DNA from: a virus
Taxonomy: Duplodnaviria > Caudoviricetes
Strand: one strand, 5' to 3'
Virus record (IMG/VR): IMGVR_UViG_2706795922_000001
Span: 11,627-75,626 of that record
DNA: 64,000 nt
Each line of letters starts with the position of its first letter. The stretch's first letter is position 1. Both the position numbers and the translations under genes were made by a program. A model generated the notes under the pieces. It worked only from the letters and a program-made list of their open reading frames with translations. It ran no database searches and was not told where the DNA came from. This document shows, piece by piece, positions 3,001-53,902 of this stretch.

Positions 3001-4776
3001 AAGAGTGGCGATAGGGATAAGCAGAATGCGGCGGTTCCGGGCGTAGACGGTCTGTTGGGGGTTAACCCTTATGACTACTACGGGATCAGTCAGCCGGGCA
3101 CGGCTCAGCTTGTGCCTAACGCTAATAGCACTGACTACCTGGGCAGCATGTCGTCTGTGGCCTCGCAGTTTGGGCTTAGCCTGACTTCGGGAATGCGCGA
3201 TGAGGCCGGTTCGCTTCACAGCACCGGGACGGCGGGCGATTTCTCTAACGGCAGTGGTAACACGCCGGAAATGGAAAAGTTCGCCAACTTCATGGCTGAT
3301 AACTATGCGCCGTACATCACGGAGCTTATCTATGACTCGCCTACGTTCAATAAGACCATCAAGGATGGCAAGATCGTGGGCAAGTTCGGTGAGTTCTACA
3401 CGATGGCGCAGGCCGGTAACCACCAGAACCACGTTCACCTAGCGGTGGACATGCCTCCTATGCTGGCGCAACAGGCTTTCAACCAGTACCAGCAGCAGGC
3501 GGGCGTGGGCGGTGTGGCGGCTCCGGTCGGCGGCGGCGCGGCGGCTTGGCGTCCTAACGTGCAGCAGGCAGTGGCTAACGTCGCTGCTCAGTACGGGATC
3601 ACTAACCAGGCTGCGGTTGTTGAGGACATTCTGGGGCAGATCGACTTTGAGTCTAAGGGTGACGCGGGAGCGCTTAACCCGAATGACTCGGACGGTCTAC
3701 CGGCTATCGGGCTGGGGCAGTTCAAGCAGGGCACGTTCAACGCTCACAACATTACTGGCGGCAGCATCAACGATGGTAACGCTCAGATTTACGCGATGAT
3801 CGACTACTTGGCTTCGGGCAAGTACGGGATTATTCCGGGTGGCGGCGTTAACTGGAAGGGTGTTGGTTGGCGTAATGGGATGGGTTATGCGAATGGCGGT
3901 CTGCTAAGGGGTCCTGGGAACGGCACTTCGGATTCGATTCTGGCGCGCGTTAGCAATGGCGAGTTCATTACTAAGGCGTCGGTGGTTTCTCGTAATCCGG
4001 CTCTGTTCTCGGCGTTCAATTCGGGCGCGCTGGACCCGGCTATGTTCCCTGGTTTCGCGGACGGTACTCCGGTGCCGTTGCAGATCGCGGGTATGCAGCC
4101 GCAGACGCCTCAGCAGGCGGGTCCTCTGCCTCCACCAGCGGCTCCTATGGCGGGTCCTCCGGGACCTGACCCTCAGGCTCCGCAGAGCCAGCCGGGGCAG
4201 CCTCCGGTAACGGATACGGCGGCTCAGGCGCTCGGTGGTATCAGCCTTGGCGGTACTAGTGCGGCAGATGGCGCTCAGCCGGGCGCTGAGGGACCGGAAG
4301 GGGCTAACCCGGAGATTGACCCACGGTCGATTCTCGGTGCGGCTCCGGCGAACACGGACCACAACAATCCTGCTTTGTCTAAGGGCATTCAGGGTGCGTT
4401 TAGCACGGTGGGTTCGATTGCGTCTATGGCGGCGTCGGCAGCTTTGTCGGCGGGCACGATGGGCGCGGGCGCGGCTGCGGCTGGGCCTGCATCGTCTGGT
4501 ATTCAGGCGGGCGCTCAGATGGCCGGTCAGGTCGCTACGGGTGCTCTCAATATCCTGTCGAGCTTGCTTGTTGGTACGGCTCCTGGTCAGACGGGCACGA
4601 CGCAGAACGCGTACGGCGCTCCTGTGCTGCCTCAGGGTCCTCCGCAGAGTCAGCCACGCGGACCGGCTGTGGTGAACAACTACGGCGATATCCATACGGC
4701 TAACTACGAAGAGTTCCATAGGGGACAGCAGCGTAGGGAGGCGCAGACGCAGGCACCATTCCTGCCGATGCGATAA
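1..4776 (+). CDS. tape measure protein (5' truncated by window edge)
   Basis: Ala/Gly-rich ORF of >1586 aa upstream of minor tail genes; helical N-part; two FA(S/N)GG..GPG.GTSDSILARVSNGEFI repeats; transglycosylase-like FESKGD..GLGQF segment. Confidence 0.93.
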   Translation, partial: DEAEAMMNLAEAQAEANNRLGKSAFELQKDQLRLRRAENELADTRKTNGRLAQDVAEANKKGIAGNDAVVAATERLTAALEDQRRGADAVNELADAMAKLSPNAQDFVNKVKALGGAWDELRNAVQDRLFANLGDDVTTLAGKSLPMLQKGLSDVAGSLNGNLRTALRELGSDQNQGFLENIFGNTAEAGKVFDQAIKPLLDGILRLSSVGSDYLPRLSDAFGDVMRRFDNFITRADEDGSLDRWIDQGLTSLTELGNTLLNIASIMNTVSEAFTGAGGTSVTKWLEDNTKRLADFLKGPEGQQKLRDMFANARAEFSKWEPVLKTIPGIIKNIATAAQNWADIVMPFLTTVAPILRDHPGLVMAIFTAYMSWKTFMPIIKGVNTLIGTDTGLVGAAKRAGRSIAAADGLTGKMRAFGQLIGPGGLVMGGLTVLAGFLINDWVNAQQTAADAVQHHADMVDLLKQNLDSLSGSMTQQGLINTINGLSSWTDPRGNRRDIPMIAKDLGLTDQFTRAVNPTDQAGRNQFSGSVREQLRQELGPKLKETVDSVNHERDSRGGDSTGTPVLTEDAFLDALLSGPQTRTDFAKKYFMRETLDDFIFGSKGGPLGIGSTSGLSDRAKNLISLNAATNEAVDSGLVQGDLNRTLGLSLSGQKAEFQPNSPFSQLGSPRAFYNINRDGGAVIEVDTPPDKLPPDLKEKLGDYNITPLANGSGSHIVVDPELAKQFLVPAFASGGMFRGPGSGTSDSILARVSNGEFITRASVVERNPELFHALNAGLIDPAMLPAFAGGTPFPLDIPALPGGPTVPPGYTATNGPTNGFVPAIAGAPMVPWDQLSGGGAQVVSAPRPPTQYRTFTPPAPKPAVKPAAPASTAPSSTGTPHLTGAVPGPTQHLTGPNGSPVLPGPSVAGVPGIPGTSSGSAATVGDTGSPLQNMINGWNPTLTPSVNDPMGLAGLPDNLQPVSILEQAGEILLSAVLGFFGIDPTYFNIGKKIFTGLTGKSGDRDKQNAAVPGVDGLLGVNPYDYYGISQPGTAQLVPNANSTDYLGSMSSVASQFGLSLTSGMRDEAGSLHSTGTAGDFSNGSGNTPEMEKFANFMADNYAPYITELIYDSPTFNKTIKDGKIVGKFGEFYTMAQAGNHQNHVHLAVDMPPMLAQQAFNQYQQQAGVGGVAAPVGGGAAAWRPNVQQAVANVAAQYGITNQAAVVEDILGQIDFESKGDAGALNPNDSDGLPAIGLGQFKQGTFNAHNITGGSINDGNAQIYAMIDYLASGKYGIIPGGGVNWKGVGWRNGMGYANGGLLRGPGNGTSDSILARVSNGEFITKASVVSRNPALFSAFNSGALDPAMFPGFADGTPVPLQIAGMQPQTPQQAGPLPPPAAPMAGPPGPDPQAPQSQPGQPPVTDTAAQALGGISLGGTSAADGAQPGAEGPEGANPEIDPRSILGAAPANTDHNNPALSKGIQGAFSTVGSIASMAASAALSAGTMGAGAAAAGPASSGIQAGAQMAGQVATGALNILSSLLVGTAPGQTGTTQNAYGAPVLPQGPPQSQPRGPAVVNNYGDIHTANYEEFHRGQQRREAQTQAPFLPMR

Positions 4777-10621: not shown

Positions 10622-11839
10622 ATGTCGTGGGATATAAGCCCACCTGACCTGTCTAAGCCTCCGGCTCGGGGTTGGTTCCCGCCGATTGACAGCACGCCTC
10701 CGACGTACGGGGCGGGCTGGTGGGTGGTTCTCAATGTGGAGAACGCCTTATCGGTGCATCTGGTGACTGAGGCTGAGCTTGGGGCGCTGCTGCATCTAGA
10801 CATGGTTACGGCCATTGAGACTGACCGGGAAGCGGCTTTGCGTCAGGTTTCCATGCTGGTGGCTGATGCGCCGATTGCGGTTGACCGTGTGATGTTCTTT
10901 AGTGCGACTTTCCAGTTCGACAATGAGTTGTCGGTAACGGTGGACCGGGCGCTTGAGTTCTCTCGGACGACTGGGCTTGACCTGTCGGCGGTGTTGACGG
11001 CAAGCAGGGCCGCTGGGCTGATTTCGATTGGCAAGCTAAGCGCTGCGCTAAGCGTGGGCGCTAACCGTTCGTCGGGCCTGGTGAAGGTCGCTCCGGTGAG
11101 CTTGTCGCGGTCGGTGTCGGTTGACCGGTCTGCGGACTTCGCTATCCGGTCGAATATCGACGCGGCGCAGATTGTGTCGGGGGATCGGGCGCTTGAGTTG
11201 GCGCGGATCAACTTCATTGACTCGGCGGCGACCGTTAGCGCTAACCGGTTCGCAGCGATGGGCCGTCCTCCGTATGCGACGACGATTCAGCAGTTCTCGT
11301 CGGCAGGCAGCTACTCGTACACGATTCCGCGTAACTGCGACTTCATTGACGTAGTGCTGCTTGGCGGGGGCGGCGGTGGCCGCTCTATGCCTGCGTTCGG
11401 TACGTGGGGTCAGGGTGGTCGCGCCGGGGCGTGGCAGTTCTACACGCTGGTCAGGGGTGTGGACATTCCTTTCTCGGCAACGGTGATTACCGGGACGGTC
11501 GGTAACGGCGGTAATGGCGGCGCGGCGGCGTTCGGTGCTAACAACGGCCAGCCGGGCGGCGCTACGACGGCGGTCGCTACGGGCTGGGCTGGCACGCACA
11601 GTGCGGCGGGCGGCGCGGGTGGCGGCGGCAGCCTTGACCCTAACGGCCAGGGTCCGGGGGATCAGACCTACAACGGCGAGCTTTACGACGGCGGCGAGGA
11701 CCGGGCGTCCGTGGGTACCGGCTTGACCGGTAACGCTCCGGGCGGCGGCGGGACCGCTTCGCAGGTTTCGCTCGGCTTCACCGGTACTGCCGGTGGTAAT
11801 GGTGCGCCGGGAGCCGCCTGGTTCCGCGCTTATCAATAA
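10622..11839 (+). CDS. minor tail protein, glycine-rich C-terminus
   Basis: 405 aa; GGGGGG/GGAGG repeats ending GAAWFRAYQ, typical of mycobacteriophage tail proteins. Confidence 0.8.
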   Translation: MSWDISPPDLSKPPARGWFPPIDSTPPTYGAGWWVVLNVENALSVHLVTEAELGALLHLDMVTAIETDREAALRQVSMLVADAPIAVDRVMFFSATFQFDNELSVTVDRALEFSRTTGLDLSAVLTASRAAGLISIGKLSAALSVGANRSSGLVKVAPVSLSRSVSVDRSADFAIRSNIDAAQIVSGDRALELARINFIDSAATVSANRFAAMGRPPYATTIQQFSSAGSYSYTIPRNCDFIDVVLLGGGGGGRSMPAFGTWGQGGRAGAWQFYTLVRGVDIPFSATVITGTVGNGGNGGAAAFGANNGQPGGATTAVATGWAGTHSAAGGAGGGGSLDPNGQGPGDQTYNGELYDGGEDRASVGTGLTGNAPGGGGTASQVSLGFTGTAGGNGAPGAAWFRAYQ

Positions 11840-27938: not shown

Positions 27939-28021
27939 GTGGCGAAGGCAACTGTTGGTTTGTTGCACCTGCCTGTAAAGCAGGCGCTTCGGCTTCGGGG
28001 GTTCAATTCCCTCTCGCCACA
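27939..28021 (+). tRNA. tRNA-Tyr(GTA)
   Basis: acceptor GTGGCGA/TCGCCAC; CCTGC-CTGTAAA-GCAGG anticodon arm; long variable arm; GGTTCAATTCC T-arm; atypical D-arm. Confidence 0.8.
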
Positions 28022-28054
28022 CGCTTTACCAGTAACCAAACCCTTAAGGATGAC

Positions 28055-29192: not shown

Positions 29193-30632
29193 ATGACCAC
29201 TTTCCTACGCAGCTTGCAAGAGCAGTTCAACCACACCACGACGGAGAACGGCGCTCTTGCCCATAAGAGCAGCTTTGATCCGGTGGTGGATTACTTCGGT
29301 CTGGCGGGCGCTATGCGTAACCGGGCTGAGGCTTCGGCTGACCTGTTTGAGACGGCTTTCCGTTCGGACGTGCAGGCCGCGATCCGGACCCTGTTCTATC
29401 TGCGCGACGTGCGCGGCGGGCAGGGGGAGCGCGATGTGTTCCGCGCGGGCCTTAAGCGGCTCGTCGGCCTTAGCCCCGTTAAGGCGGGCCGGGTGTTGCA
29501 GCATGTCCCGTTCTACGGGCGCTGGGACGATCTGCTGATTGAGGGTGTGTTCCAGCACCCGGAGGTCCAGAAGATCATCCTTAACCAGTGGACGGCTGAC
29601 GTGGCGGCGTACGAGCGCGGCGAGGGCGTGTCGCTGATGGCTAAGTGGCTCCCGTCCGACAAGGCGGCGAATAAGGAACTGGCTATCGCGGTCCGCAAGT
29701 CGCTGGGCTTGACGCAGCGCGAGTACCGCCAGACGCTTAGCGCGCTTAGGTCGCGGATCGGTCTGCTTGAGCAGTCTATGTCCCGGAACGATTGGGATAT
29801 CGACTACGGCAAGCTCCCGGCGCAGGCGCACCGTAAGCACGTCAAGGCGTTCCGTCGTCACGCGGAGGGCGAGTACCAGGCGTACTTGGATGCCGTCGAG
29901 CGCGGCGAAGCCAAGATCAACACGGCCACGCTGTACCCGCATGAGCTTTACGACATGGCGACCCGCTACAGCGGCGACCGTAAGGCCGCTGACGTGATGT
30001 GGAACAACCTGCCGGATTACACGCGGGGTACGGAGGCCATCGTCATGGCTGACGTGTCGGGTTCTATGCACCAGTCGTGGAGCCAGGGCGCTAACCCAAT
30101 CGCGGTGTCGGTGTCGTTGGCGCTGTACTTCGCGGAGCGGAACCAGGGCGACTACGCGGGCTACTTCATGACGTTCGCGTCCACTCCGGCGCTCATGAAG
30201 GTGCCTTCCGGGGACCTGAGTGCCCGTCTGAGCGCCATTGAGAACTCTACGGGGTGGATGGGTAGCACAGACGTTGGAAAGGCGTTTGACGCGATCCTGG
30301 CGGCTGGCGTGAAGTCGGGCACTGTCCCGGCGACTCTCTACATCATTTCGGACATGCAGTTCGACCAAGCGATTGACGACGGAAACGATACGACGTTCCA
30401 GACGGCTAAGCGGAAGTTCGCGGCTGCCGGGCTGGAATTGCCGCATGTCGTGTTCTGGAACGTGGACGCTCGGAACGATCAGCTTCCGGCGACGATCTTG
30501 GACGGCCAAGTCACATTGGTTTCCGGCTTCTCGCCTACGGTGTTCGGGATGGCGGTAGAGGGCAAGACTCCGCGCGAGCTTGTGGACTCCGTTATCAACT
30601 CTGAGCGCTACGAGCGGATTAATCCGTTCTAA
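29193..30632 (+). CDS. Ro60/TROVE-like VWA protein (DUF2828 family)
   Basis: TENGA, LRDVRGGQGER, YGRWDDL, AKWLPS motifs; VWA MIDAS DVSGSM, ISDMQFD, FWNV, VSGFS. Confidence 0.88.
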   Translation: MTTFLRSLQEQFNHTTTENGALAHKSSFDPVVDYFGLAGAMRNRAEASADLFETAFRSDVQAAIRTLFYLRDVRGGQGERDVFRAGLKRLVGLSPVKAGRVLQHVPFYGRWDDLLIEGVFQHPEVQKIILNQWTADVAAYERGEGVSLMAKWLPSDKAANKELAIAVRKSLGLTQREYRQTLSALRSRIGLLEQSMSRNDWDIDYGKLPAQAHRKHVKAFRRHAEGEYQAYLDAVERGEAKINTATLYPHELYDMATRYSGDRKAADVMWNNLPDYTRGTEAIVMADVSGSMHQSWSQGANPIAVSVSLALYFAERNQGDYAGYFMTFASTPALMKVPSGDLSARLSAIENSTGWMGSTDVGKAFDAILAAGVKSGTVPATLYIISDMQFDQAIDDGNDTTFQTAKRKFAAAGLELPHVVFWNVDARNDQLPATILDGQVTLVSGFSPTVFGMAVEGKTPRELVDSVINSERYERINPF

Positions 30633-30635
30633 AAC

Positions 30636-30942
30636 TTCCATACTGCGGCTCTGAACCGTAAGCTATGGAAATAGGTGGACACAGACAGCAATTACTTTGT
30701 TTGCATACAACAGAGAAATGTGTCCAGTAATGCTTGTGGACCCCCACAGCAATTGACAACTCACAGGAAAAACCGGTGGTCGCGGGTTCGAGTCCCGCTC
30801 GCTCGGGTAGACCGGGCGATAGCTCAGTTGGTAGAGCATTGGTCGCAGTTAAAAACGGGGTCCAGTTAAAGCGGTTGTGGACGGTAACAGCAACCTAAAA
30901 CTTTCACTGCTAATGAAATCAAATTCCGTCCAGTCCCACCGC
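30636..30942 (+). ncRNA. array of Y-RNA-like ncRNAs with tRNA-mimic modules
   Basis: three GTGGAC-N4-ACAGCAA...GTCCAGT units with covarying stems; permuted T-acceptor-D module; anticodon-like hairpins. Confidence 0.8.
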
Positions 30943-30949
30943 GCAGATC

Positions 30950-30991
30950 GCCTCCGTATTCAGCCTTAGCGGCTGACCGGGGGCTTTTTTG
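30950..30991 (+). terminator. intrinsic terminator after RNA array
   Basis: GCCTCCG..TCAGCC-TTAGC-GGCTGA..CGGGGGC followed by TTTTTTG. Confidence 0.7.
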
Positions 30992-31013
30992 TGCCCAAAC
31001 TAAGGGAGACACC

Positions 31014-31355
31014 ATGAAGAGAGTTATCGGCGCGCTCGCTGCCGCTGCCGCGCTTGTGGCACTGCCCGCGTGCGCCACCCAGAATCAGCACTGGGAAAAC
31101 GGCTGCAAGGTCACGTCCAAGGACACCATTTACGACAAGGACTCCGAGGGCGGCGTTAAGCGCGTTAAGCGCGTTAGCACGACCTGCGGCGCGTTCAACG
31201 TGGAGGACGCCTGGGAGGCCGGATCGTTCAACAGCTACGACCTGTGGGCGAAGCTGGAAGAGGGCAAGGTCTACGACCTCAAGGTTGGCGGCATCCGCAA
31301 CGGCTTCTTTTCCATGTTCCAGACGGTCCTAGAGGTTAAGGGTCCGAATGGCTAG
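31014..31355 (+). CDS. lipoprotein
   Basis: MKRVIGALAAAAALVALPAC signal peptide/lipobox; GGGAG RBS. Confidence 0.75.
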   Translation: MKRVIGALAAAAALVALPACATQNQHWENGCKVTSKDTIYDKDSEGGVKRVKRVSTTCGAFNVEDAWEAGSFNSYDLWAKLEEGKVYDLKVGGIRNGFFSMFQTVLEVKGPNG

Positions 31356-32149: not shown

Positions 32150-33126
32150 TCACCGACTATCAAGTAAAGCGGGACTACTGGGATAGGCCAATCGTCTGGC
32201 CCGAAGGGGAGACGGACCTATCCGGGGAGTGGAAAGACGGGAGAGGGCGCGATGGCAAGCCAAAGCGATGGTTCCGGCCAAGGTCCAAAGGCGCTAAGGG
32301 CTATAGCCGCGCGTCAGGTGCCGGGAAAGGGCTTGACTCCAAAGACGGCCTTGTCGATTGGGCAGCCTGTCAAGCAGCCGTTGGAATCATGTTGGATGCC
32401 TCCGCGCGCTCAGAGGTCACAACGCTTATCAACGAGTACGAAGCCGACCCTTGGAACAAAGGCGACGACGGCGGCACCCGCTCCGGTAAGCAGCGGCTTA
32501 AGGACGCTGTTGAGCAAGCGCGTAACACTGCCGGTCAGCACACTGCTGCTAGCGCTGGCACTGAGTTCCATAAGCTCGGCGAGCTACGCAATAAGGGTAA
32601 GAAACCGCATGTCGTCCAAGAGCACCTAAAGGAACCGCTCTCTAAGTACGACGCGGCGGTTGAGCCGATTGAGTTCATTAGCCAGGAAATCCTTATCGTC
32701 AACGACGCTCTGGAACTGGCTGGCTCGGTCGATTACCTCATGGGGCTGCCTCCGGGGATTACCACTCCTGACGGGGTGTACCACGAAAAGGAATTGGTTG
32801 TGGTTGGCGACCTTAAAACGGGTCGCTGGGACGCGCGGTTTCCGCTTAGCGTGACGTGCCAATTGTGCGCCTACGGGACTGGTGTGCGTTATGACCAGGA
32901 GACGAACACTCGCTCTCCGCTGCATAACCAGATCAATACCAAGTGGGGCGTCATGGTGCATTTCCCGATCATGACTAAGGACCCGGAGGTTCGCTTCTAT
33001 TGGGTGGACTTGGAAATGGGCCTTAAGGCGTCTCTGCTCGCTAAAGAGGTTCAGGCTATGCGTAACCAGTTCAACTCAAAGGACGCGCAGCTTACGGAAT
33101 TGGATTTGAGCAAGTATCAATGGTGA
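32149..33126 (+). CDS. PD-(D/E)XK (Cas4/RecE-like) exonuclease, probable non-canonical ATC start
   Basis: AGTEFH, AGSVD, GDLKTG, QLCAY motifs; frame is open 80 codons upstream of the first ATG (32389). Confidence 0.8.
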   Translation: MTDYQVKRDYWDRPIVWPEGETDLSGEWKDGRGRDGKPKRWFRPRSKGAKGYSRASGAGKGLDSKDGLVDWAACQAAVGIMLDASARSEVTTLINEYEADPWNKGDDGGTRSGKQRLKDAVEQARNTAGQHTAASAGTEFHKLGELRNKGKKPHVVQEHLKEPLSKYDAAVEPIEFISQEILIVNDALELAGSVDYLMGLPPGITTPDGVYHEKELVVVGDLKTGRWDARFPLSVTCQLCAYGTGVRYDQETNTRSPLHNQINTKWGVMVHFPIMTKDPEVRFYWVDLEMGLKASLLAKEVQAMRNQFNSKDAQLTELDLSKYQW

Positions 33127-33137
33127 ACGGAGAGCAA

Positions 33138-33905
33138 TTGAGTGAAGAGTCCGTAAAGGCTGCGCCTAAGAAGTTCACGCTGGCTGAGGCTGAGGCTCAG
33201 ATCGGTGACCTGACGGCGCTAGTGGAGGACATTCAGGCGCGCGGCGGTACCGGCGACAAGCCGACTGTCTTTGAGTCGTGGAATCGGGTAATGCGCGACG
33301 TGCAGGCGATCCGCAAAGACTCGTACAACTCGGGTCAGAAGTTCAACTTCCGTGGCATTGACGCGGTGATGAACGCGGTTGGCCCGGCGCTGCGCGAGCA
33401 CGGCGTTACGGTCGTCCCTCGCGCGCTTAGCGCGGAAGCGGAGCGTTACCAGACCGCTAAGGGCGGTCAGATGTGTAACCGCACCGTGGAAATGGGCTTC
33501 CGGGTGTTCGGCCCGGCTGGCGACTACTTCGACGGCACGGCGTACGGCGAGGCTGCCGACTCGGGCGATAAGTCGATGACTAAGGCTGAGTCCGTCGCGC
33601 TTAGGACGTTCCTGCTGCAATCGCTGATGATTCCGACTGACGATCCGGACCCGGATGCTGAGTCGCATGAGCGGGCCACTCCGGCTACTGCTGCACGCTT
33701 GCAGCCTCCGGCTCCGGTGGGTAACGCGGACTCCGCGCAGGCTCGCGCTGAGCTTAAGGAACTGGCCGGTCAGAAGGGCTGGGACCTGAACGCGATTGCC
33801 GACAAGTTCGCAGCCGACAACAACGGCAAGTTGCTTAAGGACGCGACCGGCGAAGAGGTCACGGCCTACAAGAACCTTCTACAGACAGGGGCGGTAACCG
33901 TCTAA
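33138..33905 (+). CDS. ERF-family ssDNA annealing protein
   Basis: FNFRGIDAVMNAV..GEAADSGDKSMTKAESVALRTFL; adjacent to exonuclease. Confidence 0.85.
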   Translation: MSEESVKAAPKKFTLAEAEAQIGDLTALVEDIQARGGTGDKPTVFESWNRVMRDVQAIRKDSYNSGQKFNFRGIDAVMNAVGPALREHGVTVVPRALSAEAERYQTAKGGQMCNRTVEMGFRVFGPAGDYFDGTAYGEAADSGDKSMTKAESVALRTFLLQSLMIPTDDPDPDAESHERATPATAARLQPPAPVGNADSAQARAELKELAGQKGWDLNAIADKFAADNNGKLLKDATGEEVTAYKNLLQTGAVTV

Positions 33906-53781: not shown

Positions 53782-53825
53782 CCCCTACCTAAGCCTCTCC
53801 TAGATGCTCAAATGGGTAGGGCCGT

Positions 53826-53896
53826 TCCCCTGTCATCTAAAGGCAGGATGCCTCGCTGTTAACGAGGTCACGCAGGTTCGACCCCTGCTGGGGGAG
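53826..53896 (+). tRNA. tRNA-Asn(GTT)
   Basis: TCCCCTG/TGGGGGA acceptor; CCTCG-CTGTTAA-CGAGG. Confidence 0.85.
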
Positions 53897-53902
53897 CTTA
53901 AG

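Follow-up and report, generated by a model that had tools for sequence, protein, structure and literature searches.

The DUF2828 locus of a Cluster L mycobacteriophage

The 64-kb stretch of DNA analyzed here (the window; positions 11,627 to 75,626 of the 75.6-kb virus record IMGVR_UViG_2706795922_000001) belongs to a Cluster L mycobacteriophage and contains a gene for a 479-aa DUF2828/vWA protein, which is followed by three small RNA units and a hairpin with a U6 tract. Each unit is organized around a common "handle", in which the two ends of the RNA form a closing stem and the heptamer ACAGCAA follows the 5' strand, and each encloses a different insert, termed the cargo below. The units are considered here as candidate Y-RNA-type partners of the DUF2828 protein. 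The features of the locus are listed with the evidence for each in brackets, where R1 denotes a covariance model built from an alignment of 70 short units.

29193..30632, + strand: DUF2828 and DUF7788/vWA protein of 479 aa, predicted to form a Ro60-like ring with an intact DxSxS...T...D pattern of the MIDAS (metal ion-dependent adhesion site) type (Pfam, PHROG, AlphaFold2 model, homologs)
30676..30727, + strand: unit 1, 52 nucleotides (nt), with an 8-bp handle stem 30676-30683/30719-30726 (sequence, fold)
30737..30865, + strand: unit 2, 129 nt, candidate permuted tRNA mimic of the YrlA type (sub-threshold Rfam match, fold, covariation)
30878..30933, + strand: unit 3, 56 nt, with a 7-bp handle stem 30878-30884/30926-30932 (sequence, R1)
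30950..30990, + strand: terminator-like bulged hairpin with a T6 tract, closing the array (folding)

DNA comparison showed that the region 29193-31000 is 94-98% identical to its counterparts in the phages Samty, Lolly9, Whirlwind and their relatives. All 51 matching phage records are from Mycobacterium phages, and 12 of these span at least 80% of the query. In GenBank the gene is labeled 'Ro-like RNA binding protein' in these relatives, and the RNAs are unannotated in the records of Samty, Kahlid and Archie; in Samty a hypothetical CDS of 64 aa (gene 55, 3083-3277 of our locus L003) is instead placed over units 1 and 2. The L2 subcluster phages Kahlid and Archie, whose gene is about 74% identical at the DNA level, retain the three-unit layout. 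In their unit 3 a compensated change from GGAC/GTCC to GGTC/GACC is seen within the otherwise "constant" part of the stem. The G+C content of the array is 49%, against 62% in the gene and the flanking genes.

Anatomy of the three handle units

The original prediction, made from the letters of this DNA, had placed three units here with the geometry GTGGAC-N4-ACAGCAA...GTCCAGT and covarying stems, and both the sequence and the alignment bear this out. All three conform to the formula, with one or two nucleotides separating the stem from the ACAGCAA, and have in common the five outer pairs TGGAC/GTCCA, the heptamer itself and a G immediately after the 3' strand. The two or three inner pairs differ between the units with compensation (ACA/TGT, CCC/GGG and GG/CC, respectively). 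In unit 1 the stem strands are TGGACACA (30676-30683) and TGTGTCCA (30719-30726), with ACAGCAA at 30685-30691 and the 3' G at 30727; its cargo is a 7-bp hairpin (30695-30715) with the 7-nt loop UGCAUAC, and its minimum free energy fold has -15.3 kcal/mol (z -2.2). In unit 2 the strands are TGGACCCC (30737-30744) and GGGGTCCA (30857-30864), with ACAGCAA at 30746-30752 and the 3' G at 30865. Its cargo comprises a T arm (30782-30798), an acceptor-like hairpin (30799-30819) and a D arm (30822-30837), and the fold has -53.1 kcal/mol (z -2.8). Unit 3 is closed by TGGACGG (30878-30884) and CCGTCCA (30926-30932), with ACAGCAA at 30887-30893 and the 3' G at 30933, and carries a 5-bp hairpin (30902-30918) whose loop CUGCUAA resembles an anticodon loop. 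The minimum free energy fold of this unit in isolation is weak (-11 kcal/mol, z -1.1), and in it the AGCA of the heptamer pairs with the UGCU of the loop. The hairpin beyond unit 3 (30950-30984; -25.3 kcal/mol, z -3.1) is directly followed by TTTTTT, as would suit the terminator that the original prediction had seen there.

The heptamer alone is found eight times in the window, against 6.9 occurrences expected, i.e. at chance level. The significance of the feature thus rests in the clustered stem-motif-stem geometry and in the comparison with other loci rather than in the heptamer as such. A search with R1 recovers just units 1 and 3 both in the window and in the whole 75.6-kb record, with 35.9 bits (E 6e-6) for unit 1 and 44.4 bits (E 6.1e-8) for unit 3, each of which is itself a training member of the model. 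A CRISPR array, a retron or a mobile repeat was also considered for the array and ruled out: the copies share the handle only, and no reverse transcriptase or cas gene lies nearby.

The handle tracks DUF2828 genes across viruses and bacteria

The association between handle and gene was analyzed at 162 DUF2828 loci, comprising 159 homolog loci (the best 80 of 494 confirmed stretches in GTDB genomes and the best 79 of 511 loci in IMG/VR) and three GenBank loci. Within 1.2 kb of these genes the exact heptamer occurs 408 times on the gene strand as opposed to 17 times on the antisense strand. For 104 composition-matched heptamers in the same regions the median is 29, and the only two that exceed 62 are both one-base shifts of ACAGCAA. 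A stem of at least 7 bp accompanies 357 of the 408 gene-strand heptamers versus 23 of 59 minus-strand controls. Under a strict scan at least one unit is present in 141 of the 162 loci, which contain between zero and seven units each, positioned upstream of the gene in 91 loci and downstream in 65. In the alignment of 70 short units every one of the eight stem pairs changes on both sides.

As a check on its own claim the original prediction had named a covariance-model search of the flanks of DUF2828 genes, and this search turned out in its favor. At E<=0.01 R1 recovered 137 matches in the 80 genome loci and 145 in the 79 viral loci, and each of these 282 is found on the strand of the gene. The units occur in arrays, and their cargo varies. 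Among the 130 distinct viral matches the 3' G is present in 129, CAGCAA in 124 and the exact ACAGCAA in 107. The least biased tests are the searches of whole genomes. In four complete bacterial genomes (18.4 Mb; E<=0.001) all six matches have one of five DUF2828 genes 95-1090 nt away and on the same strand; one of these five genes is a second copy from outside the earlier set of loci. Similarly, among 61 genomes of one bacterial family the gene occurs in a single genome, and R1 matches were recovered in that genome alone, with none in the other 60. A megablast search of Escherichia coli genomes, ill-suited to the purpose and uninformative, gave no match.

The identity of the stems is also structured by locus: at the outer positions it amounts to 0.69-0.80 within a locus but 0.38-0.57 between loci, a difference that the inner positions do not display. 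Such a locus-specific outer stem fits a dedicated protein that reads the outer stem, the ACAGCAA and the 3' G, though concerted evolution of the copies could also yield the pattern.

In a Succinimonas genome (reached through locus L039) there are two DUF2828 genes (G003:C1:1470043-1472079 and G003:C3:100548-102717), and a separate handle RNA lies 524-655 nt upstream of each. At two other loci the gene lies within long tRNA arrays with interleaved handle units, namely L019 (150-2412 and 3930-4492; 23 Rfam tRNA matches) and L117 (70-5473; 17 matches).

The DUF2828 protein is predicted to adopt a Ro60-like fold

Searches with the 479-aa protein recovered matches above the respective Pfam cut-offs to DUF7788 (PF25043; 7.5e-33, 114.1 bits against a cut-off of 27.1) and DUF2828 (PF11443; 8.8e-26, 91.1 bits against 29), together with a sub-threshold match to VWA_2 and a match to the PHROG family phrog_850, described as 'RNA-binding protein' (3.1e-161). 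An AlphaFold2 model computed from 16 homologs attained a predicted local distance difference test score of 80.4 and a predicted template modeling score of 0.67. When this model was compared with known structures using Foldseek, all 12 matches below E 1e-4 were Ro60 chains (E from 1e-7 to 7e-5). A second structural aligner likewise returned Ro60 for all of its top ten entries, with Z from 17.8 to 12.4 across 388-414 residues: the Ro60 of Thermus phage phiLo scored 17.8, Deinococcus Rsr 15.4, and human and Xenopus Ro60 about 14. Below this tier the matches cover the vWA domain alone, with Z of at most 9.8. The residues D287, S289, S291, T359 and D387 are invariant in the 16 homologs and fit the MIDAS pattern. 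The gene product is thus predicted from the model to be a Ro60-like ring, i.e. a helical-repeat toroid combined with a vWA/MIDAS domain, and its likeness to Ro60 is structural and not at the sequence level.

The family is very large: one search gave no fewer than 4,859 proteins, and there are 5,857 clusters at 50% identity. Homologs are present in 699 of 50,697 sequenced phage records, including phages of the Felix O1, P100, Twort and KVP40 types, and the hosts of these phages include Escherichia, Salmonella, Vibrio, Listeria, Staphylococcus, Campylobacter, Enterococcus and Bacillus.

tRNA-like parts in the cargo

Unit 2 (30762-30870) matches the Rfam YrlA model RF02553 with E 5e-7 and 39.3 bits, below the gathering threshold of 69, and it is only the tRNA-like core that aligns well. 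Rfam also reports a match to the T arm of transfer-messenger RNA in this unit, and the region 30400-31200 contains, besides these two, just weak rows at chance level. A consensus fold of 21 RNAs of the unit 2 type (11 mycobacterial and 10 distant) comprises a T arm, a hairpin resembling a capped acceptor stem and a D arm in addition to the handle stem, with compensatory change in 18 of its 24 pairs. Many RNAs of this type add a hairpin with a 7-nt loop of the CUNNNAA type between the handle and the T arm and are, with it, complete permuted tRNA mimics; in the window unit this position is taken by a hairpin with an AAAAA loop. At other loci the handle stands in place of the acceptor stem with the remaining parts in ordinary tRNA order. 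A tRNA-shaped RNA is also seen at L147 2132-2241, where a 110-nt Rfam tRNA match (47.6 bits) has ACAGCAA inside it at 2185.

Across the 347 units, 188 are short and have no T arm, 87 have a T-arm motif (followed by a D-like element in 42), and 72 are long without the motif. A T-arm unit is found in 104 of the 141 loci, and cargo classes are mixed in 81 of the 104 multi-unit loci. Sub-threshold YrlA matches occur at the window locus and at three others. At gathering thresholds Rfam gave 42 tRNA matches, distributed over nine of 20 loci, and one signal recognition particle RNA; ten loci (61.6 kb) searched at E<=1 added sub-threshold YrlA matches and noise only. For the short units the evidence is statistical: 127 of 173 distinct units have a 7-nt loop on a hairpin stem of 4 bp or more, against 56 +/- 5 in shuffles, and 56 of 173 have a loop of the form YU-NNN-R-N, against 5.5 (maximum 13). 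This is suggestive of cargo resembling anticodon arms.

The original prediction had assigned tRNA-derived cargo to every unit of the window. This is clear for unit 2 and suggestive for unit 3, with its 5-bp stem and CUGCUAA loop, but is not evident for unit 1, whose cargo is a plain hairpin with a loop (UGCAUAC) lacking a U33-type signature. A constant handle with variable tRNA-like cargo therefore describes the family well, and at the window locus it describes unit 2 and probably unit 3.

Comparison with known RNA-protein systems

Ro60 binds the conserved stem of Y RNAs that are encoded beside it, and in bacteria and phages these RNAs include a tRNA-like member (PMC4201824). Chen et al. 2014 found YrlA RNAs adjoining Ro60 in 22 phages, including mycobacteriophages, with several Y RNAs per locus; the genomes gathered were just those annotated with a TROVE domain (PMC4201824). 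The present system resembles the Ro60/Rsr and Y RNA pairs of Salmonella, of Mycobacterium smegmatis (YrlA/YrlB) and of TROVE mycobacteriophages such as ET08 in several respects: the ring-plus-vWA fold, as predicted here; partner RNAs beside the gene and on the same strand, often several per locus; a closing stem formed by the two RNA ends with a conserved element on its 5' side; and one RNA per locus with a permuted tRNA-like domain. It differs in that the DUF2828 protein is without the TROVE signature, in that the handle is TGGAC-N3-4-ACAGCAA with a 3' G instead of GNCGAA(N)G or CGAA, as the original prediction had rightly noted, and in that unit 2 scores 39.3 with the YrlA model, whose threshold is 69, and the short units often have hairpins resembling anticodon arms. 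In other words, the architecture is like that of Ro60/Y RNA, yet the system lacks both the TROVE signature and the CGAA-type site, two sequence features by which that family is defined, and remains below the YrlA threshold. The host M. smegmatis encodes its own classical YrlA-like RNA (PMC4201824). Because the host genus has such an RNA, the distinct phage handle may be orthogonal to the host YrlA/Ro60 and keep the two particles separate.

The best structural match, the Ro60 of Thermus phage phiLo (PDB 9KOP, 9L5Y), is accompanied by the adjacent RNAs Yrl1 and Yrl2, and its binding through the CGAA motif has been demonstrated by electrophoretic mobility shift assay and cryo-electron microscopy (PMC12135203). 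It is likewise a phage protein, with two small RNAs next to its gene, and the window protein superimposes on it with Z 17.8 and a root mean square deviation of 4.5 A over 400 residues. The sequence identity is however only 16-17%, and the CGAA motif, by which the phiLo RNAs were detected and validated, is absent from the window units.

The handle itself has a close parallel in eukaryotes. The Class I RNAs of Dictyostelium are 42-65 nt long and have a short 5'/3' stem whose 5' strand adjoins a conserved single-stranded motif, while the rest of the RNA is variable (PMC7919456); in vitro probing of one such RNA found the motif unstructured (Kjellin et al. 2021, PMC7919456). They have their own DUSE promoter about 60 nt upstream and were reported to be unique to Dictyostelia (PMC7919456). 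The search pattern printed for them is GTTGRCCTTACAGCAA ... GTCAACTG (Mosig et al. 2006, PMC5054030), and Rnp1A, an RRM protein, is the one direct binder that has been named. Units 1 and 3 (52 and 56 nt) share with this pattern the GRC/GYC stem core, the N2-4 spacer and the ACAGCAA, and differ from it in the 3' tail, which is CUGU in the eukaryotic RNAs and G(U) here. The Rfam model of the Class I RNAs (RF01414) had no match at E<=10 in 30400-31200 and none at E<=1 in ten loci (61.6 kb).

A function has been shown for one member of the protein family. The protein gp130 of Bas63 (Escherichia phage JohannRWettstein, of the Felix O1 type), a full-length homolog of the window protein (164 of 477 residues identical, 34%; E 3e-83), counters the Ppl defence (PhageMaP preprint 10.1101/2024.10.10.617714). 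Bas63 is a Gram-negative myovirus, unlike the window phage, and the anti-Ppl effect was obtained with gp130 alone. Its gene lies directly before a tRNA array, in which there is an R1 match between two tRNAs. The likeness to the Ro60 fold was remarked on by the authors of that preprint, who ventured that Y RNAs may be among the annotated Bas63 'tRNAs'; it identifies no RNA partner (10.1101/2024.10.10.617714). One further paper mentions Ro60-like proteins in Clusters C and AF, without naming RNAs.

The original prediction had supposed that the arrayed form was undescribed. This holds in part: several Y RNAs beside a Ro60 gene were already known (YrlA/YrlB in Salmonella, Yrl1/Yrl2 in phiLo), and the design of stem plus ACAGCAA had been printed for the Class I RNAs, while the pairing of such RNAs with DUF2828 is new as far as our searches reach. 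The literature searched yielded no paper on this pairing, and the list of 22 phages in Chen et al. 2014 could include Cluster L.

Neighboring genes and other features of the window

The DUF2828 locus is flanked by genes of the lipoprotein and secreted-protein kinds. About 1.5 kb 3' of the array, at 32389-33905, an exonuclease (phrog_466) and an Erf-like annealing protein (phrog_155) make up a phage recombination module. On the 5' side a solitary 84-nt tRNA-Tyr(GTA) at 27939-28022 lies 1.17 kb from the DUF2828 gene, and the main tRNA cluster of the phage is distant, at 51.1-54.0 kb. Rfam also recovers an abiF RNA motif at 53784-53821 (39 bits against a gathering threshold of 37; E 0.0015), which abuts a tRNA gene of disputed identity: ARAGORN predicts a 93-nt 'tRNA-Pyl (cta)' at 53805-53897, and Rfam a tRNA at 53826-53896 whose anticodon arm CCTCG-CTGTTAA-CGAGG gives GTT.

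Alternative explanations

The locus might be an ordinary Ro60/Y RNA locus of the described kind, in which unit 2 would be a YrlA and units 1 and 3 would be YrlB-like RNAs beside a diverged Rsr ortholog. The E value of unit 2 against YrlA (5e-7), the Ro60-like fold of the protein model and the published YrlA RNAs beside Ro60 in 22 phages, mycobacteriophages included, with several Y RNAs per locus (PMC4201824), are all compatible with this. We nonetheless consider it quite improbable, given that 39.3 bits is far under 69 with good alignment in the tRNA-like core only, that ACAGCAA replaces the GNCGAA(N)G or CGAA element, that a TROVE match is absent and that the 2014 study took TROVE-annotated genomes only (PMC4201824). 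Alternatively, the handle might be read by some other factor, for instance a host RNase or another factor that processes or stabilizes tRNA-like transcripts of operons, with its linkage to DUF2828 reflecting shared operons in phage tRNA islands. This would accommodate the interleaving of units with genuine tRNA genes in L019, L117, L011 and L119, the Rfam tRNA matches in nine of 20 scanned loci, the location of the Bas63 R1 match between two tRNAs, and the ability of gp130 to work in T7 without its own RNAs (10.1101/2024.10.10.617714). In the window, however, the 1.17 kb that separate tRNA-Tyr (27939-28022) from the DUF2828 gene contain no tRNA gene, and neither do the 20 kb 3' of the array; the bacterial matches track the DUF2828 gene and not tRNA genes (six of six beside the gene, none in 60 genomes without it); and the outer stem varies by locus, as expected of a co-evolving dedicated partner. 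An unrelated reader of the handle is therefore unlikely.

The units could also act in cis within the DUF2828 mRNA, for example as operators of autoregulation, as decoys or as stabilizers, rather than as free small RNAs. They are always on the gene strand and directly upstream (91 loci) or downstream (65) of the gene, and the consensus scan found no separate promoter at the window locus, as this would predict. Up to seven copies per locus, elaborate tRNA-like cargo, and purifying selection with compensatory change are hard to explain for an operator, however, and both the analogous partners of Ro60 and the Class I RNAs of Dictyostelium exist as free small RNAs (PMC4201824, PMC7919456); the chance that the units are cis-acting elements appears slim. 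Finally, it has next to no likelihood that the region encodes a small protein, corresponding to Samty gene 55, over which the repeats lie by coincidence. A 64-aa open reading frame with a GTG start does span 30675-30869 and is annotated as hypothetical in Samty, but it has no PHROG match, no open frame is kept among the relatives (the longest stop-free stretch in one of them is 32 aa), its region has the G+C content of 0.49 against 0.62 in flanking genes, and the stems covary.

A putative second kind of Ro/Y-RNA particle

The feature itself is real and well supported, and we regard it as fairly probable that the three downstream RNAs are cognate Y-RNA-type partners of the DUF2828 protein, with which they would form a ribonucleoprotein. 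Several observations weigh against this. In the 479-aa protein Pfam detected no TROVE family at E<=0.1, and a profile of the 16 homologs compared with PDB sequences retrieved no Ro60 chain at E<=1, so that of the 'TROVE/VWA, Ro60-like' protein originally predicted the TROVE part falls away at the sequence level and the likeness to Ro60 is retained through structure. Consensus scans of 30400-31100 returned neither a promoter nor a terminator, the predicted one at the end of the array included. By the strict scan 21 of the 162 DUF2828 loci have no unit at all. A 7-bp stem arises by chance around about 39% of control heptamers, a high background, and the argument is for this reason built on the strand bias, on R1 and on the searches of whole genomes. 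Both the pairing of 95% and the invariance of the motif in the alignment and the model are in part a product of construction, because the units were selected on both exact motif and stem. In the anticodon-loop test the reverse-complement control (53 versus 56) did not discriminate, as the loop pattern is nearly self-complementary; the signal there is partial. Lastly, gp130 alone, in the absence of the Bas63 RNAs, restored plaquing of T7 on a Ppl strain (10.1101/2024.10.10.617714). Since it does so, the anti-Ppl activity of gp130 may not need cognate RNAs, and a role of RNA in it is perhaps not obligatory.

With these points taken into account, the DUF2828 gene and its handle RNAs probably represent a second, largely undescribed kind of Ro/Y-RNA particle. 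In such a particle the protein would read the constant handle, i.e. the five outermost pairs, the unpaired 5'-side ACAGCAA and the G that follows the 3' strand, and the inner stem pairs and the cargo would be free to vary. The RNAs, presumably expressed and processed as separate small RNAs, would present parts of tRNAs through their cargo: unit 2 a permuted elbow (T arm, capped acceptor stem and D arm) and unit 3 a hairpin resembling an anticodon arm. By analogy with Ro60/Y RNA, they would act as a gate on the ring or link it to proteins that handle tRNAs. In the phage the particle would most likely serve as a counter-defence in the struggle over the RNA and tRNA of host and phage, but a role in counter-defence or in a tRNA-centered conflict is less certain than the cognate particle itself.

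A more encompassing picture can be offered tentatively, and it is doubtful that it holds in all its parts. DUF2828 proteins and ACAGCAA RNAs might constitute a second ancient ribonucleoprotein system of the Ro/Y type, spread across phages, giant viruses, bacteria and eukaryotes, of which the Class I RNAs would be the eukaryotic members. The constant handle of the phage particle would display interchangeable tRNA parts (anticodon arms, elbows or whole permuted tRNAs) as decoys or adaptors that neutralize RNA- or tRNA-directed immunity of the host, and the handle would be orthogonal to the host Ro60/YrlA.

No mechanism has been assigned to the very large DUF2828 family, and a specific, easily recognized RNA partner would turn it into a testable ribonucleoprotein. 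It would give annotators a reason to drop small reading frames placed over the RNAs, as in Samty. It would also provide a mechanism to test for Bas63 gp130, a counter-defence protein established by genetics, and suggest an origin and possible binders for the Dictyostelium Class I RNAs, thought to be unique to social amoebae. The design of a constant handle with variable cargo would moreover represent a natural scaffold for the display of RNA modules.

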